A stretch of 64,000 nt of DNA from Candidatus Zambryskibacteria bacterium CG10_big_fil_rev_8_21_14_0_10_42_12 (GCA_002787695.1 PCXL01000011.1:61155-125154), one strand, 5' to 3'. Positions 3,071-10,078 are shown, counted from the first letter of the stretch. Made by a program: numbers and translations. Notes: generated from the letters alone by a model not told the origin.

Positions 3071-3142
3071 GGCCCTATCGTCTAACGGTTAGGACATCGG
3101 CTTTTCAAGCCGGTAATCGGGGTTCGATTCCCCGTAGGGTCA
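3071..3142 (+). tRNA. tRNA-Glu (anticodon TTC)
   Basis: GGCCCTATCGTCTAACGGTTAGGACATCGGCTTTTCAAGCCGGTAATCGGGGTTCGATTCCCCGTAGGGTCA. It has anticodon loop TTTTCAA and T-loop TTCGATT. Confidence 0.9.
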
Positions 3143-3200
3143 CATGAAAAATGAAGAGGCTCCCGCAAGGGAGCTTTTTCATGTGACCCTACGGGCAGAA
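3143..3200. terminator. Compound hairpin terminator after tRNA-Glu; its outer stem is an inverted copy of the tRNA 3' end
   Basis: GGGTCACATGAAAAA-TGAAGAG-GCTCCC-GCAA-GGGAGC-TTTTTCATGTGACCC. The inner 6-bp stem plus T-run is flanked by a 15-bp outer inverted repeat. Confidence 0.6.
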
Positions 3201-3330
3201 AGGGGTCGGGGAAACTGGGTGTTTCCCCGTGGAGGAAGGCAGTGAGTCCTCGAACGTTGGAAAACCGTGGGTTTCCAAGGTCTCGTAAGGGTCAATGAAA
3301 AATTATCTGTGACCGAAAGTGTATTCACGT

Positions 3331-3348
3331 TTCCCCGTAGGGTCACAT
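3331..3348 (+). repeat. 18-nt perfect direct repeat of the tRNA-Glu 3' end (TTCCCCGTAGGGTCACAT)
   Basis: Identical to 3128-3145. The two copies bracket a 185-bp hairpin-rich segment at 3146-3330. Confidence 0.8.
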
Positions 3349-3391
3349 CAGGACTGATATTCTCGATAGATAATTATGATATATTTTCTTC

Positions 3392-4222
3392 ATGAAAATA
3401 TATCGCTATGTTATAGATGGGCTTGTGATACTCCTGGCACTCTTTGTTTTTGGTCCACATTTGTATTATCTCTTGCCGTATGACTACGTAGACACAACTC
3501 TTCCGGACGATGTTGCCGATTATAATATTGCGATGTATACGTACCTGGAAAGTTTACCTCAAGATTTCCAGACATTACTCGCAGAGCCAACTGGTCTCAC
3601 TGGTACGCAGCGCTTTCGCACACAGGAAAATCGAAGCTTATTATCGGCAGAAGAAGTGTATGAACAGAGCAAGGACAGTGTGGTGATTATCGAGACGATG
3701 GATATGTATGGAGACCCATATAGTGGCGGCGGTGTTGTGCTGTCATCTGATGGGCTGATTGTCACGAGTTATCATCAATTGCAGGATGCAGAAAAAGTTG
3801 CAGTTTCACTTTATGATGGCAGCATTGTCAAAGTCACCGATGTGGTTGCATACGACGAAGCGCTCGATATTGCATTTATAAAGATCGATAGTGTCGATCT
3901 GCAGCCGATGCCGATAGGAGACAGTGCGCTACTTTCGATCGGTGAGCGAGTCTACTCCATCGGGCATCCTGAAGGATTTCATCACTCGTTTGCAGAGGGT
4001 GTGGTCAGTGGTATCCGTGACTATTCGTCTAGAGGTGAAGGGATACAGATCCAGATGACGAATCCGATTTCAGCAGGGAATAGTGGTGGCGCGTTGCTCA
4101 ATACCTATGGCGAGCTTGTGGGTATTCCATCGTGGTCTCTTGAATACGAAGACAATATCGTCTCTATCCAAAACCTCAATTTCTCCATCCCGATCAGGGA
4201 GGCGCTCGGAATTTTAGAATAA
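3392..4222 (+). CDS. Trypsin-like serine protease (S1C/HtrA-like protease domain, no PDZ), N-terminal membrane anchor
   Basis: Catalytic triad context: TSYHQL (His), DIAFIKI (Asp), GNSGGAL (Ser). 276 aa. Confidence 0.85.
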   Translation: MKIYRYVIDGLVILLALFVFGPHLYYLLPYDYVDTTLPDDVADYNIAMYTYLESLPQDFQTLLAEPTGLTGTQRFRTQENRSLLSAEEVYEQSKDSVVIIETMDMYGDPYSGGGVVLSSDGLIVTSYHQLQDAEKVAVSLYDGSIVKVTDVVAYDEALDIAFIKIDSVDLQPMPIGDSALLSIGERVYSIGHPEGFHHSFAEGVVSGIRDYSSRGEGIQIQMTNPISAGNSGGALLNTYGELVGIPSWSLEYEDNIVSIQNLNFSIPIREALGILE

Positions 4223-4348
4223 GTCCAAACCTTGAAAATACGGCTTTATAAAAGAAAATTTTGTTTTTATATATTATAAAGAGCTTAAATCAGGAGTCGT
4301 CTTTTTTATTGATAAAGTTTATTTTTTGGACTAATATCCATAATACAG

Positions 4349-5671
4349 ATGAATACCAATCAACATCAAAAAAATTATGAGGTGAAACTACCCAGAATAA
4401 TGACGATCGTTTTAAGCATTGCTTCTTATTATAGAAAAACATATTTTAATACTAATGACTTAGCTATATTAGGAAACAAATATAAGCAGGATATAATACG
4501 CACCAGGAAAGATAAGGAGCACTATGCTTTTGCGAATGACACGAATTTCGGCGGAATTAGAGGTAATCTCGCTACTTTGTTGACTTGGAAGGGGGTTATT
4601 AAAAAAGATAATAGATTAGTTAATGCGTATTCTGTTGGCAGAAATGAACAAATAGTTAATGCTGTTGCTAGTGGAAAAATTATGCTTGATCTGACAAACG
4701 ACAAAGCTCATACACAGAATGAGAATCTTTTAAAATTATTGAAGGCTGAGATTTACTTAAGGTCAGTCAGGGAAGGTCAGGCACATATAAAAACATTTAT
4801 AAAGAACAATAACCATATTGGTTTTGGGAGAGATCTTGAGTTTCCAAAAACTTCTGTAGTAAAGACCAGTAAAGGTGTATGTTTTTTGAGGGCAATTGTT
4901 AATAATTTTGTAGATAGTAAAAATGAAGTTCTTAGTTATAGAATAGTCGATTTATGGTCTTCTAAAAAAATTTTAAAAGCTAATATTCATGTCTTATTTG
5001 TTGTTCCTAGAGGTAGTGACTATTGGTGTTCTATCTATGCTTTGTCTTTGGAGGAACTGTGGATCAATAAACCTGCAATTATAAATATAAACTTACTAAA
5101 CAAAAAATGTTTTGATGACATTGGAAAAGAGTATGAATTAAGAAAATTAGATTATGCGATAAATAATTTTACGAAAAGAGATGCAAATATAAATTTGCGT
5201 ATAGGGTATGATCCAAGAGAATTTTTAATTAGATATGTTATTGATGAAACAAAAAATAAGAGAATAAGGGAAAGTGAATTTAGTTTGTTTACCAAGAATT
5301 TCTTGAATTGGAATCCGAGAATAAAAATTAATAATGTGGAGGTGTGTAACATTATTGAATCAAGTTCTGGTGGTGTTGATCTGACACTCCAGTTTGTTAA
5401 TGGATCTGAGGCAAAGGTTGAGCTTGAGCATAATTGGAAAAATTATATTGATCATGGTCATCATACTAGTAACGCATGGTCAAAATGTTGGTTGTATGCT
5501 GATGAGCAGTGGGATTTCGATAATATAAAAAATATTTTTCAAACACATTTTAAAAAGCACGGAGACCGTGTTCCAACAACATTTCTAACTAAAATAGATG
5601 GTAAACAAAAGATATTTAGAGTTGATTGGCATACTCTTGATGTTTCGGAAATCGATATTACAAATTATTGA
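4349..5671 (+). CDS. Putative restriction endonuclease of the adjacent R-M system (no recognisable family; C-terminal D...EAK PD-(D/E)XK-like motif)
   Basis: A 440-aa ORF in a strongly AT-rich block of roughly 30% GC. It is convergent with, and ends 6 bp inside, a two-methyltransferase operon. The C-terminal GGVDLTLQFVNGSEAKVELEH resembles a PD-(D/E)XK core. The call is by genomic context. Confidence 0.4.
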   Translation: MNTNQHQKNYEVKLPRIMTIVLSIASYYRKTYFNTNDLAILGNKYKQDIIRTRKDKEHYAFANDTNFGGIRGNLATLLTWKGVIKKDNRLVNAYSVGRNEQIVNAVASGKIMLDLTNDKAHTQNENLLKLLKAEIYLRSVREGQAHIKTFIKNNNHIGFGRDLEFPKTSVVKTSKGVCFLRAIVNNFVDSKNEVLSYRIVDLWSSKKILKANIHVLFVVPRGSDYWCSIYALSLEELWINKPAIININLLNKKCFDDIGKEYELRKLDYAINNFTKRDANINLRIGYDPREFLIRYVIDETKNKRIRESEFSLFTKNFLNWNPRIKINNVEVCNIIESSSGGVDLTLQFVNGSEAKVELEHNWKNYIDHGHHTSNAWSKCWLYADEQWDFDNIKNIFQTHFKKHGDRVPTTFLTKIDGKQKIFRVDWHTLDVSEIDITNY

Positions 5672-6414
5672 TTTGTGATTTTCTTTATGTTTTTCAATTC
5701 TTTTAGTCTATTGATCATAATTGCGTAGTATTCACTATCTTTTTCTATACTTATACTATTTCTCTCTAGGTCATTTGCAACTTTTGTTATTGTTCCACTA
5801 CCAGCAAAACAGTCTAAAATCAGATCGTTTTTATTGGTGAAAATTTTAATTAGAAATTCAATAACTTTCTCAGGTTTTTGTGTAGGGTGTTTTGTTCTTT
5901 CTTTTCCCATACATATCGGTGTTTCTATAAAATTATGCATCTCTCTTTGGTTGCTAAAGTTGAAAGTGTAGCTGATTTTTTTATTATCGAAACCGTTCGT
6001 TGCCCATACAATTGCCTCATTGGAAGACAAAAAACCATTTTTTCTAATTTGTGGTGCCGGATTTGTTTTATGCCAAATTATTGTTGCATGATGTGAAAAA
6101 CCTAACGATTCGTAGATCCGCTTAATATCACTTATATATTCTAACTTACAGAATAAAACTAAATTACCATTTTCCTTTAAAACTTTTTTAATCTCACTTA
6201 CCCACTTTCTGGTAAAAACCAAGAATTCATCATCTTTAAAATAGTCCCATTCTCCAAAATCAGAAGAAAGAGCTTTTCTACCTTTCAATAATTTCGTATT
6301 TTTATTGGCAGTATTGTAGGGAGGATCCACAATAACGGCATCAACTTTTCTTTTGATTTTACCTAGGGAGTTAAAAACATCTCCAAGGATTAGTGTGTGT
6401 TTGTTCTTTTTCAT
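5665..6414 (-). CDS. Site-specific DNA methyltransferase (beta-class N6A/N4C, DPPY motif before FxGxG)
   Basis: VIVDPPYN (motif IV), HPTQKP, DCFAGSGTT (motif I) at the C-terminus. Its start codon overlaps the stop of the upstream methyltransferase (TAATG), indicating translational coupling. Confidence 0.85.
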   Translation of the reverse strand: MKKNKHTLILGDVFNSLGKIKRKVDAVIVDPPYNTANKNTKLLKGRKALSSDFGEWDYFKDDEFLVFTRKWVSEIKKVLKENGNLVLFCKLEYISDIKRIYESLGFSHHATIIWHKTNPAPQIRKNGFLSSNEAIVWATNGFDNKKISYTFNFSNQREMHNFIETPICMGKERTKHPTQKPEKVIEFLIKIFTNKNDLILDCFAGSGTITKVANDLERNSISIEKDSEYYAIMINRLKELKNIKKITNQ

Positions 6415-7343
6415 TAGGTTTTATTTTTTATTCTATCAATCGACATCTTGTAGAACGCGTTGTCTATTTCGCATCCAGAGTAAAACCTGTTCATTCTTTT
6501 GGCTACCACAGCAGTGGTACCAGATCCGAGAAAAGGGTCGAAAACAATGTCACCGCTGTTTGTTGTTGATTTAATAATTCTTTCTAGTAACCACTCAGGT
6601 TTCTGTGTTGGGTGTATCTTCTTTCCTCCAAAAGTTTTACCTTTTGGCCAAATAGATCTCATTTGCTTGCCATCATTGTCTTTTTTCATTAAATCATAAT
6701 TGAAAATATTCCCCTTTCCTTTTCTGGCCCAAATAAAATTTTCGTGATCTGCTACGAATCTAGTACAAGACAAATTGGGTGTCGCATCTGTTTTATGCCA
6801 CAAGATTTCATTTAATAATTCAAAGCCAGTTTTTTCTAATAAATAACCGGTCGTATAAATACTGTGATAAGTTCCTGCCACCCATATTGCTCCATTTTTT
6901 TTCAAAATACGGAATGCCTCGTCTATCCATTTTTTCGTAAATAGTTCATAATTATCGATTATGTCCCAAAGACCTTTATTAGTATATAGGTCTTTGCCAC
7001 CTGATTTTGTAAATTTAATTTTAAAATTGCTTTTACTGAGATTATAAGGGGGGTCTGCAAAAATGAGGTCTATAGACTCGTCTTCTATTGAGCTCATTAT
7101 CTTTATGCAGTCATCGTTAAAAATCTTATTCTTGAGCCCGTCTTTTGTTATTTTATCTCTCGCCTCTTTTTTAGGTTTTTTAGAGAGGGTAAGTAGATAT
7201 GCTAATGAATCTTTTTCAATTCTTCTGGCACCTCCAATTTTAATAGAAGGAATTATATTTTTAGATATGTATCTTTTTATAGTTATTTCAGACACATTTA
7301 AAAAATCAGAAGCTTCTTTTATTGTGTAAAAATTTGGCTGCAT
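6414..7343 (-). CDS. Site-specific DNA methyltransferase (beta-class) with N-terminal HTH domain
   Basis: N-terminal MQPNFYTIKEASDFLNVSEITIKRYI (HTH). IFADPPYN, HPTQKP, DPFLGSGTT. Confidence 0.85.
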   Translation of the reverse strand: MQPNFYTIKEASDFLNVSEITIKRYISKNIIPSIKIGGARRIEKDSLAYLLTLSKKPKKEARDKITKDGLKNKIFNDDCIKIMSSIEDESIDLIFADPPYNLSKSNFKIKFTKSGGKDLYTNKGLWDIIDNYELFTKKWIDEAFRILKKNGAIWVAGTYHSIYTTGYLLEKTGFELLNEILWHKTDATPNLSCTRFVADHENFIWARKGKGNIFNYDLMKKDNDGKQMRSIWPKGKTFGGKKIHPTQKPEWLLERIIKSTTNSGDIVFDPFLGSGTTAVVAKRMNRFYSGCEIDNAFYKMSIDRIKNKT

Positions 7344-7581
7344 TGTTTTTATCTAAGCTCGTAAAAGTATCAATTGGTATCAATTTTAGCAGTAATGGGT
7401 ATTTTGGTATGGGGATAACGTTTGTAGGTTAAAACCAAGTATAAATTTAGGGGAGGTTTTAGCAGTGGTGTAAAAATATTGGTGGTACATATCTTTGGCA
7501 TGAACAAATTCGCGATAGGAGGTCTTTATATTGTGATCCTACGAAGCATTTAACGGAGAATTGTGATATAACGCTTATATT

Positions 7582-8523
7582 ATGCCAGCAAATAATCTTG
7601 GGAAAATTTCAAAAGTGGAGTTTAGGAAAGCGTGGAATCATGAGGCTTCTGATTTTACAAATTGGCTCGCGGAGGAAGAAAACCTACGCCTCTTGAGTGA
7701 TGAAATCGGTATTGATATTAAACTTATTCAAACAGAAGCAAGTGTGGGGAAATTTAATGTTGATATTCTGGCAGAAGAGGAAAACACAGGAAAGAAGATT
7801 GTCATTGAAAATCAACTCGAAGCGACAAACCATGACCATCTTGGGAAAATTATTACCTATGCGTCTGGCTACGAGGCAAATATTGTCATTTGGGTTGTGA
7901 AGGAAGCGAGAGAGGAACATCGACAAGCGGTCGACTGGCTCAATGAGCATACTGATGAGGATCTTGCATTCTTTTTGATACAAATAGAATTGTGGCAGAT
8001 CGGGATGTCTCCGTTTGCACCTAAGTTTGAAATGATTTCTAAGCCAAATGATTGGGCTAAAACAATAAAGCAATCAGTCGGAAGTAATAAAGTAACCGAA
8101 ACAAAGGCGCAGCAATTGCAATTTTGGGAACAGTTTAAGAATTATGCAAAGGACCATAATACAAATTTGAGATTGCAGAAAGCTTATCCACATCACTGGA
8201 TGAACGTCAGTATTGGGAGTAGCCATGCACATATGGCACTTTCTATGAGTTCATTTGATGAGGTGATGCGAACAGAGCTGTATATACCAGATAATAAAGA
8301 AATATATAATTTTTTGTATAAGCAAAGAGATAAGATTGAAAAAGAATTTGGCATGAAGCTCGAGTGGATGGAATTACCAGAAAGAAAAGCGAGTCGTATA
8401 AAAGTAGAAACTTCAGGCCTTATAGATAATACGGACGAATGGGAAACATATTTTGCATGGCTTCAAAAAACCGCCGAAGATTTTCAACGAGTTTTTTCAA
8501 AAATTTTAAAAAAGTATAAATAA
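7582..8523 (+). CDS. PD-(D/E)XK nuclease-fold protein (DUF4268-like)
   Basis: N-terminal FNVDILAEEEN...KKIVIENQLEATNHDHLGKIITYA is typical of NucS/RecB-like nuclease cores. 313 aa, adjacent to the R-M operon. Confidence 0.5.
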   Translation: MPANNLGKISKVEFRKAWNHEASDFTNWLAEEENLRLLSDEIGIDIKLIQTEASVGKFNVDILAEEENTGKKIVIENQLEATNHDHLGKIITYASGYEANIVIWVVKEAREEHRQAVDWLNEHTDEDLAFFLIQIELWQIGMSPFAPKFEMISKPNDWAKTIKQSVGSNKVTETKAQQLQFWEQFKNYAKDHNTNLRLQKAYPHHWMNVSIGSSHAHMALSMSSFDEVMRTELYIPDNKEIYNFLYKQRDKIEKEFGMKLEWMELPERKASRIKVETSGLIDNTDEWETYFAWLQKTAEDFQRVFSKILKKYK

Positions 8524-8714: not shown

Positions 8715-9362
8715 ATGCCGAATCATACGAAGTGGACTGATGACAGGTTGGCTGTGGTTCGAGAACTTGCGAGTGAGCAAGGTCTTACTGCACGTGCAAT
8801 ATTTGCCCTGCAAAGACCAGAGCTTACTGGATTCACCGAGCGTGCGATCCAAAATACGATGGCTCGGTTTGGGTACACGGATCCAAGGCGGAGCGCGCAA
8901 CGAAAGCGTGCGCGTCGCCTAACGAAGGACGAGAAGGAACGACTGATCGAATATCTCGAAGGTGACGGCGCAAAGAAATCGAACAAGCTCGTGGCAAAGA
9001 AGCTCAAAGTGCCGCTTGCTAGTGTCGAGTACTGGCGTAAGCAACTAGGTCAACGGGTCGATCGTAACAAGATTTTCAAATCTGCTGTGTATCGGCGGAG
9101 CGCGTCACGTCGGGCAACTCTGTATGGCCAAGAGATCAGAGAGGCGCGTCGAGCGCAATTTCGGGCGAGGCGCACACGTCTTATCCAACAACTGAGGAAG
9201 CAACCGGACAAGGTTTGTAGGACCTGTAAGGAGCCTTGGTTTGAAGATGAATTCTTCTTTTATCGCGCTTCGACGCGAAGCAAAGACAACAAGCGCTTAT
9301 TGTTTGCGACGTGCAAGGCGTGCGTCAGTGAACAGAGGGCGCGACAACGACGTCATGTCTGA
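8715..9362 (+). CDS. Hypothetical Arg-rich DNA-binding protein (predicted HTH segments plus C-terminal CxxC...CxxC zinc ribbon)
   Basis: 215 aa, about 52% GC against a roughly 42% background. Contains CRTCKEPW...CKACV. It follows the truncated kinase fragment and may be a mobile-element remnant. Confidence 0.45.
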   Translation: MPNHTKWTDDRLAVVRELASEQGLTARAIFALQRPELTGFTERAIQNTMARFGYTDPRRSAQRKRARRLTKDEKERLIEYLEGDGAKKSNKLVAKKLKVPLASVEYWRKQLGQRVDRNKIFKSAVYRRSASRRATLYGQEIREARRAQFRARRTRLIQQLRKQPDKVCRTCKEPWFEDEFFFYRASTRSKDNKRLLFATCKACVSEQRARQRRHV

Positions 9363-10078
9363 AAATGGGGGTCACCTGAAACACGGGTGACCCTTGTTCT
9401 TTTTTGTCTGAGCATTCTATATAATGTACACGCATAGGTAGACTCGCCGGTTTTCAGGCTCTCAGTTTTTGAAAGAAGATCATCTTCTGAACATGACGCA
9501 TTCTTACATGCAGTTTTTGTATTGCAAAAACCCAGAACGGAGCGTTTGGGGAAACAACCCTTAAAAAGGATTGACAAACGCTCCGTTCTGGGTTTTTAAC
9601 GTGCTTTCACCTTCATGAATGCCTTGCGGGCATTTTAATGATTTACAAGCTAAAGTCAAATATATGGCTCTGTTGGGTTTGACACTCAAAAAAATGTATC
9701 TCTTGTCCACAAAATGTGGATAAAGTTCGTTGACTCTTCATGGTCACGTCGTACCATTAGAAGTACGAGAACTGATGGGAAACCAGTACTCGGTCGCCGA
9801 CTATGCAATACAACTGGTTTCCAAAATTTTTCATAGCAGTATAAAACCGACAAACCCGGGGAAGAGGTATGTCGGTTTTTCGTAAAATTTGAAACCAGTT
9901 AGTCGAGAACCTCGACAATCCAAATGACAGAGCACAGAACGTGTTTGTGTTTTGATATTTGGATTGCCATTACGTATATCCCTTACACGGAGTATGCGTA
10001 TCGCAATTCAAAGTTAATGGTCGATATCATTCTCGTACGAGAAATTTATTACAAGAATTAATTAATCAAAGTAAAGAT

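Follow-up and report, generated by a model that had tools for sequence, protein, structure and literature searches.

A 64 000-nucleotide stretch of DNA from Candidatus Zambryskibacteria bacterium CG10_big_fil_rev_8_21_14_0_10_42_12 (GCA_002787695.1, PCXL01000011.1:61155-125154; hereafter the window, the whole stretch that was analysed, with positions counted from its first letter) contains a segment of low guanine-cytosine (GC) content, in which a gene for a 440-amino-acid (aa) protein, R, faces the genes for two DNA methyltransferases, M1 and M2. These three genes probably constitute a Type II restriction-modification (R-M) cassette with the 440-aa protein as the putative endonuclease of a new family, a reading to which a probability of about three in four was assigned. 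The kind of system is already known. What is new here is the nuclease family, described in none of the libraries searched (Pfam, NCBIfam, PADLOC, PDB), although prior annotation in REBASE is possible. Also new is a candidate control unit, comprising an HTH_17 domain and a tandem repeat, on an adenine methyltransferase. The genes of the cassette are as follows.

4349-5671, plus strand: R, putative restriction endonuclease, 440 aa, undescribed family (synteny, family search, AlphaFold model)
5665-6414, minus strand: M2, beta-class N6-adenine DNA methyltransferase, 249 aa, DPPY at residue 30 and FAGSG at 203 (PF01555)
6414-7343, minus strand: M1, HTH_17 and beta-class N6-adenine DNA methyltransferase, 309 aa, DPPY at residue 97 and FLGSG at 271 (PF01555, PF12728)

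An earlier note on this DNA, made from the sequence alone, had described a 440-aa open reading frame (ORF) convergent with two DPPY methyltransferase genes whose stop and start overlap at TAATG, and the ORF map and the junction sequence both agree with that description. The M1 stop and the M2 start share one base (TAATG; the minus strand reads cctAATGaaa), and the R gene, convergent with M1-M2, overlaps the 3' end of M2 by 7 nucleotides (nt). Separate, adjacent methyltransferase and putative endonuclease genes, the arrangement by which Type II R-M systems are recognized, were evident from the gene map and from synteny in 42 loci.

Both methyltransferases matched PF01555 (N6_N4_Mtase), M1 with E 3e-53 and 181 bits and M2 with E 5.5e-44 and 151 bits (Pfam cut-off 26.7). 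The S-adenosylmethionine-binding motif I and the catalytic motif IV are present in each, and motif IV (DPPY) stands ahead of motif I (FxGSG), the order of the beta class; as a rule, (D/N)PPY is the mark of N6-adenine methylation. PADLOC Type II methyltransferase profiles also matched both proteins (M2 with MTase_II, E 1e-62). M1 and M2 are 32% identical to one another. The nearest solved structure to M1 is CcrM (193 bits), and the nearest to M2 is 5hek/5hfj (134 bits), deposited as adenine-specific DNA methyltransferase (DpnA), which we take to be M1.HpyAVI, a methyltransferase of a Type IIS system. M1 resembles the CcrM/HinfI-type beta-class adenine methyltransferases in its best NCBIfam and PDB matches, in motif order and in DPPY; unlike those enzymes, M1 and M2 lack the C-terminal part of the CcrM model (~100 residues) and are R-M-linked rather than orphan cell-cycle enzymes. 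The CcrM equivalog (NF050803) was not reached, the scores being 237 bits for M1 and 145 bits for M2 against a cut-off of 830, with only model positions 3-255 of 350 matched. The N-terminal helix-turn-helix (HTH) which the earlier note had seen on the first methyltransferase corresponds to HTH_17 at M1 residues 5-48 (PF12728, E 2.6e-10), a region that also matched TIGR01764 (E 1.8e-8).

A lone M1-like methyltransferase, 68% identical and carrying no DNA-binding head, was observed in two of the fetched loci, L058 (5001-5759) and L059 (2393-3151), where the surroundings are phage-like and include Mom, WhiB and recombinase genes. This gene is possibly a phage anti-restriction function, that is, counter-defence against this specificity.

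ORFs were called in all fetched loci and scored against the window proteins; 47 related loci were scanned, of which 42 have DNA downstream of the R homologue. Convergent methyltransferase genes follow the R homologue in every one of these 42, with no counter-example. Both methyltransferase genes are present in 39; the remaining three are cut off by a contig end that falls within the first gene or shortly past it. The pairs are of two types: type A (28 loci and the window) consists of an M2-like gene of ~250 aa and then an M1-like gene, and type B (14 loci) of a D12-class DPPY methyltransferase of ~345 aa and then a methyltransferase of ~430 aa with motif I before NPPY, a gamma-like order. The two types are mixed among the R lineages; L019 and L043 are type B, yet their R homologues score like those of type A loci. 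This mixture suggests that the conserved unit is the 440-aa protein together with two adenine methyltransferases, and not one operon lineage. When three M1 homologues bearing a DNA-binding domain served as the starting point, the look-ups led back to R homologues (33-43% identity). At L045 (5998-7064) the R homologue is broken into ORFs of 131 and 195 aa, next to two intact methyltransferase genes; loss of the R gene with the methyltransferases spared is how systems with a toxic R gene usually decay. The synteny, the swapped pairs, the split R gene at L045 and the phage-borne M1-like gene together are the signatures expected of a toxic nuclease with protective methyltransferases. An R-M system with an undescribed nuclease, as first proposed, is therefore the best-supported reading, considering the synteny in 42 of 42 loci, the look-ups from M1, a link kept despite 14 swapped pairs, and the weak fold matches and invariant acidic residues described below.

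The 440-aa ORF had been called one of no recognizable family, and the searches bear this out. No match was found in Pfam, NCBIfam or PADLOC, nor among PDB sequences with either the single sequence or a profile; in Pfam at E<=10 the protein again had no match, and no weak match was consistent over all 27 family members. The NCBI entry that is 100% identical to the window protein comes from the same organism and is named 'hypothetical protein'. Restriction enzymes often have no sequence relatives, so that a further orphan family is in itself no surprise. Homologues fell into 27 clusters, 35-46% identical to the 440-aa protein and all of 428-447 aa, and were located in 36 loci of species-representative genomes; the total came to 57 unique homologous sequences, whose identity to the window protein is 33-45%. 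When 1.84 billion representative proteins were searched with a HMMER profile, the R family appeared as only four full-length 50%-identity clusters and fragments; judged from these sequences, it is small and isolated. A repetitive protein of 693 aa that was also matched by the family profile was rejected as artefact-like. Plasmid records (tblastn) and viral contigs (scan) contained no relative of the 440-aa protein.

The hosts are mostly members of the candidate phyla radiation (CPR), namely Paceibacterota, Nomurabacteria, Saccharibacteria, Adlerbacteria and Howlettbacteria, and also include Saganbacteria, a Pacearchaeota metagenome-assembled genome (MAG) and gut Bacilli, Clostridia and Mycoplasma MAGs; the window itself is from a CPR MAG. 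This patchy spread fits horizontal transfer. Further defence or mobility genes often adjoin the cassettes, examples being a serine recombinase or a Gabija-like OLD-TOPRIM/UvrD pair. At L050 and L051 the cassette has both of these as neighbours, and the R homologue is immediately preceded by a 71-aa gene of HTH_3 type, controller-protein-like (L050 9442-9657, L051 8394-8609).

An AlphaFold2 model built from the family alignment (mean predicted local distance difference test score, pLDDT, 85.8; predicted template modelling score, pTM, 0.76) divides the 440-aa protein into three parts.

4349-4717, plus strand: R residues 1-123, helix/beta-hairpin region, proposed DNA-recognition part (invariant block and predicted secondary structure)
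4721-5248, plus strand: R residues ~125-300, PD-(D/E)XK-like fold without the canonical D...(D/E)xK residues (model)
5261-5668, plus strand: R residues 305-440, proposed catalytic PD-(D/E)XK domain with E310 (5276-5278), D344 (5378-5380), E358 (5420-5422) and E360 (5426-5428)

In the C-terminal domain, residues E310, D344, E358, E360, H361, W363, H369 and H371 are invariant in the 57 sequences. The model places E310 on helix 1, D344 just before strand 2 and E358-x-E360 in strand 3, which is the canonical order, and K356, nearly invariant in the 27-sequence alignment, lies two residues ahead of E358 in the same predicted strand. The D...EAK motif noted earlier was thus upheld in part: D344 is invariant and K356 nearly so, but E354 and A355 are not conserved, and the conserved signature reads D344...K356-x-E358-L-E360-H361. 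Among the closest known systems is the PD-(D/E)XK superfamily, characterized by a four-stranded mixed beta-sheet between helices (alpha-beta-beta-beta-alpha-beta core) and a catalytic D...(D/E)-x-K on strands 2 and 3, in its BamHI-like E...D...ExE active-site variant, BamHI presumably having the same arrangement as the C-terminal domain of R. Weak nuclease-fold matches were obtained with the structure models; VRR-NUC, LlaBIII, NucC, TnsA, FokI, PaqCI and HamA were matched with the full model only, and by subtraction these must map to residues 305-440. Foldseek found nothing significant in the PDB for the model of the 440-aa protein.

Within the N-terminal part, N34, T35, R51, K56, Y59, D64, T65, G68, G69, R71, G72, N73, T79 and G82 are invariant in the 57 sequences and include the block D64-T65-x2-G68-G69-x-R71-G72-N73; the confidence of the fragment model was low for residues 58-71. 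The middle domain has no acidic pair conserved at the canonical positions in the same 57 sequences. It may be a degenerate nuclease domain that serves in DNA binding or dimerization, or else hold a second active site of non-canonical kind. Invariant Arg, Asn, Lys, Thr and Gln residues are numerous both in this domain and in the N-terminal third, and these two regions may form a common DNA-recognition surface, in which case one target would be shared across the R family.

Some of these features would also suit a protein that is no nuclease at all, with R as a DNA-binding accessory (a specificity or regulatory factor, or an inactivated relic) and the methyltransferases as an orphan pair. The 440-aa protein matches no nuclease family, its fold matches are weak and its middle PD-(D/E)XK-like domain is without canonical catalytic residues. 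Nevertheless, E310, D344, E358 and E360 are invariant at canonical positions across 57 sequences at 33-45% identity, and an accessory factor is not expected to stay with two unrelated methyltransferase pairs. Disruption of R at L045 with survival of the methyltransferases also argues for a toxic product, and the phage-borne lone M1-like methyltransferase implies that there is something to evade. An accessory role was therefore judged very unlikely.

With R as the nuclease, the cassette would operate as follows. M1 and M2, as N6-adenine methyltransferases, would each modify one strand of an asymmetric target and so protect the host DNA. The N-terminal two thirds of R (the helix/beta-hairpin region and the PD-(D/E)XK-like domain without canonical residues) would read the site, and the C-terminal PD-(D/E)XK domain would bind Mg2+ via E310, D344, E358 and E360 and cut unmethylated DNA, probably at or near the site in a Type IIS/IIA manner, with predicted cleavage at a distance. 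The HTH_17 domain of M1 would bind tandem ATTGATAC repeats in the M1 promoter, and the M1-M2 operon would be repressed once methyltransferase is sufficient.

Within Type II, Type IIS/IIA behaviour is probably to be preferred, on the basis of the two methyltransferases and the large, modular putative nuclease. Both subtypes recognize asymmetric sequences, and in Type IIS the cut is displaced to one side. Type IIS systems with two methyltransferases and one nuclease include MboII, EarI/SapI/BspQI and MnlI/HpyAVI. The present cassette is similar in having one nuclease-candidate gene and two adjacent methyltransferase genes, and in a multi-domain putative nuclease of ~430 aa whose proposed catalytic module is C-terminal; SapI/BspQI are presumably of similar size to the 440-aa protein, a lead that was dropped. 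It differs in that the R profile reaches no relative outside its own family among the 1.84 billion representatives and the PDB, where entries are unnamed and single enzymes were thus not checked by name. FokI has a single active site and acts through dimerization. An arrangement of that sort in R and one with two sites per chain, as in Class II enzymes (PMC3017599), are equally possible. Class II of Chan et al. (PMC3017599) comprises those Type IIS enzymes in which a single chain bears two catalytic sites, among them BsaI, BsmAI, SapI and others; in the middle domain of R no acidic pair is conserved where the fold would require one, which makes a second active site doubtful.

Two methyltransferases are also found in symmetric-site systems such as DpnII, in which a D12-class enzyme and a second adenine methyltransferase accompany one nuclease. 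The cassette could accordingly be a true R-M system with R as its nuclease and yet not Type IIS, having a symmetric or degenerate target, with the methyltransferases either dividing double-stranded and single-stranded incoming DNA between them, as in DpnII, or possessing two overlapping specificities. The type B loci resemble the DpnII-type arrangement, and M1 is most similar to CcrM, which acts on the palindrome-like GANTC. Against this, the putative nuclease is large and multi-domain with a separate C-terminal catalytic module, a form typical of Type IIS/IIA and not of the small homodimeric Type IIP enzymes. Two unrelated methyltransferase pairs have been recruited, both as pairs, and M1 and M2 at 32% identity may differ in their target-recognition parts. 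On balance a non-IIS system appears unlikely, and Type IIS/IIA remains the preferred form.

The proposed control of the cassette concerns the region upstream of M1, the elements of which are listed below.

7200-7331, minus strand: HTH_17 (excisionase/MerR-like) module, M1 residues 5-48, proposed autorepressor (PF12728, TIGR01764)
7344-7581, no strand: divergent intergenic region between M1 and the DUF4268 gene, also holding a DnaA-box-like 9-mer with one mismatch, TGGGGATAA (7409-7417)
7367-7385, minus strand: tandem direct repeat, proposed M1 operator, 24-42 nt ahead of the M1 start codon and reading ATTGATAC-c-AATTGATAC in the M1 orientation

The 9-mer GTATCAATT occurs exactly twice here, at 7367-7375 and 7377-7385, and four times in the whole window against 1.2 expected. 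At L048, which has the closest HTH_17-type M1 (85% identical), both repeat units are intact and the spacer base and downstream flank have diverged. At L091 an identical 23-nt ATTGATACCAATTGATACTTTTA precedes, by 13 nt, a gene for a stand-alone HTH protein of 63 aa, which is 49% identical to the M1 N-terminus; the next gene is a beta-class methyltransferase 28% identical to M1. These two loci suggest that the repeat travels with the HTH module and not with the methyltransferase lineage, which supports the operator idea; the tandem repeats can thus be retained as a candidate operator, as the earlier note had suggested, the same repeat standing upstream of homologous HTH modules in both. L091 came from a scan of metagenome contigs for the 17-base operator pattern, in which 80 loci were fetched, mostly as chance or repeat-element matches, and L091 alone was informative. 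The 17-base pattern was also seen inside an unrelated repeated element, atccggtaaatttcaATTGATACAAATTGATACttttagaattgctg, on soil contigs (L065, L077, L094 and L104), and at L071 (16-173) in a tandem array of 10 copies with a 20-nt period.

The known HTH-autorepressing methyltransferases are, as a rule, C5-cytosine enzymes. Autorepression through the N-terminal HTH of a modification enzyme is presented as an established mode of R-M control in section 17 of PMC3874152. Like M.SsoII/Ecl18kI, M.EcoRII and M.ScrFIA, as treated in that section (PMC3874152), M1 has an N-terminal HTH and a repeat beside or over its promoter, 24-42 nt from the start. M1 differs from the M.SsoII type in being a beta-class adenine enzyme with an excisionase-like HTH_17 domain and a direct rather than an inverted repeat, to which M1 would bind.

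Several points weigh against the Type II reading or parts of it. The 440-aa protein has no sequence similarity to any characterized nuclease (PDB, Pfam, 1.84 billion representatives). Its fold matches were given to the C-terminal domain by subtraction and not by a direct domain search, and the third catalytic position is Glu where PD-(D/E)XK has Lys. Two methyltransferases do not prove an asymmetric site, and an analysis of the depletion of 4-, 5- and 6-mers outside the island produced no outstanding asymmetric word, the 64-kb window being too small for this purpose. The repeat units upstream of M1 overlap TTGATA hexamers, and the repeat could represent duplicated -35-like promoter elements instead of an operator.

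Instead of HTH_17, the first methyltransferase of most relatives has a complete LexA-like module (LexA_DNA_bind and Peptidase_S24) at its N-terminus; examples are L001 (10105-11517), L010 (7292-8728), L012 (4728-6119), L013 (8033-9469), L050 (6001-7383) and L052 (5001-6434). Aligned to E. coli LexA, this module keeps the A-G cleavage site, the GxSM serine and the TLKK/TLKR lysine. Clusters of such LexA-methyltransferase fusions number ~80 among the 120 matches listed, some of them annotated 'LexA', and no paper on LexA-methyltransferase fusions was found. Of the 17 LexA-type loci inspected, 13 have a perfect DnaA-box-like TTATCCACA, in either orientation, no more than ~100 nt from the M1 start; it was found upstream of the M1 homologue at L012, L013, L015, L018, L020, L022, L026, L035-L039 and L044. 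The same 9-mer has 25 exact copies in 471 kb against roughly four expected, and exact copies in the window at 8184-8192 and 9715-9723. The LexA-type loci also have tandem TTTCGGT-like direct repeats just ahead of a TATAAT box.

A bolder interpretation is that R represents a structurally new endonuclease class, with two PD-(D/E)XK-derived domains per chain, one of them re-used for sequence reading, and a recognition or cleavage specificity unseen in known enzymes, in a portable cassette whose first methyltransferase takes interchangeable repressor heads: HTH_17 with the ATTGATAC tandem operator in the window, and in most relatives a complete, apparently self-cleaving LexA module by a DnaA-box-like site. 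We regard this as unlikely. If the interchangeable LexA heads are real, methylation capacity would be tied to DNA damage, for example as feedback against self-restriction. The fusions hint that R-M control may be connected with the SOS response in a way not yet explored, and would explain some 'LexA' annotations in CPR genomes, and the HTH module with its tandem repeat looks like a portable control unit. The R family itself, with 57 unique sequences and a strict two-methyltransferase partner, could yield a new specificity for the enzyme toolbox, and the cassette would be a defence system of CPR/Patescibacteria and other uncultured lineages, in which few have been characterized.

The GC content is 0.28-0.36 over ~4200-7600, compared with 0.44-0.48 in the left flank and a window mean of ~0.43 (2-kb bins). 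The earlier note had described an AT-rich block of ~30% GC with sharp borders. The low GC and the sharp left edge stand, the left border falling abruptly at the stop (4222) of a trypsin-like peptidase gene, but the right edge is not at 7581: a GC of 0.35-0.40 persists through the next gene (7582-8523), values of at least 0.50 being reached only beyond ~8600. The low-GC island is consequently ~4.4 kb with two defence modules inside. The cassette (4223-7385) was probably acquired horizontally, as its composition and the patchy spread of the family over phyla suggest. Neither an integrase nor flanking att/direct repeats bounding the island were found at its borders. The left end of the island precedes R:

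4223-4348, plus strand: intergenic region upstream of the R gene, with a promoter-like TTGATA-17 nt-TAATAT at 4309-4337 (consensus match)

Promoter-scan matches in this region are no commoner than in shuffled sequence. The 126 nt between the preceding gene and R contain no ORF for a controller (C) protein, the stretch being too short.

The second defence module is the gene on the far side of the divergent intergenic region.

7582-8523, plus strand: DUF4268 protein, PADLOC phage-defence candidate 'PDC-S11', 313 aa (PF14088 E 5.7e-31; PDC-S11 E 2e-123)

The PDC-S11 profile match is near full length (residues 4-311 of 313). By eye, the N-terminus shows a D...E-N-Q pattern resembling PD-(D/E)XK nucleases, and no sequence relative was found in the PDB. 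This protein was considered as the cognate nuclease of M1 and M2, the 440-aa gene then belonging elsewhere, since it is a PADLOC defence candidate with the PD-(D/E)XK-like pattern and has the low-GC block and an intergenic region in common with M1. The candidate was rejected on synteny, a DUF4268 homologue standing beside the cassette in none of the 47 related loci scanned, whereas the 440-aa homologue was present in all those with downstream DNA; PDC-S11 is, moreover, catalogued as a stand-alone candidate. A role as the cognate nuclease is thus hardly credible, and the DUF4268 gene was judged to be a separate system from the R-M cassette.

Elsewhere in the window, the 3' end of a tRNA-Glu gene (3071-3143) is repeated ~200 nt downstream (3125-3154 and 3328-3357, 83% identity over 30 nt), and perfect 15-21-nt inverted copies lie between the two (3175-3195). 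The duplication may be the scar of an old integration at the tRNA gene and does not flank the R-M island. To the right of the island, a perfect 23-nt inverted repeat with a 26-nt loop occupies 9526-9597, in the intergenic region after a GC-rich gene (8715-9362).

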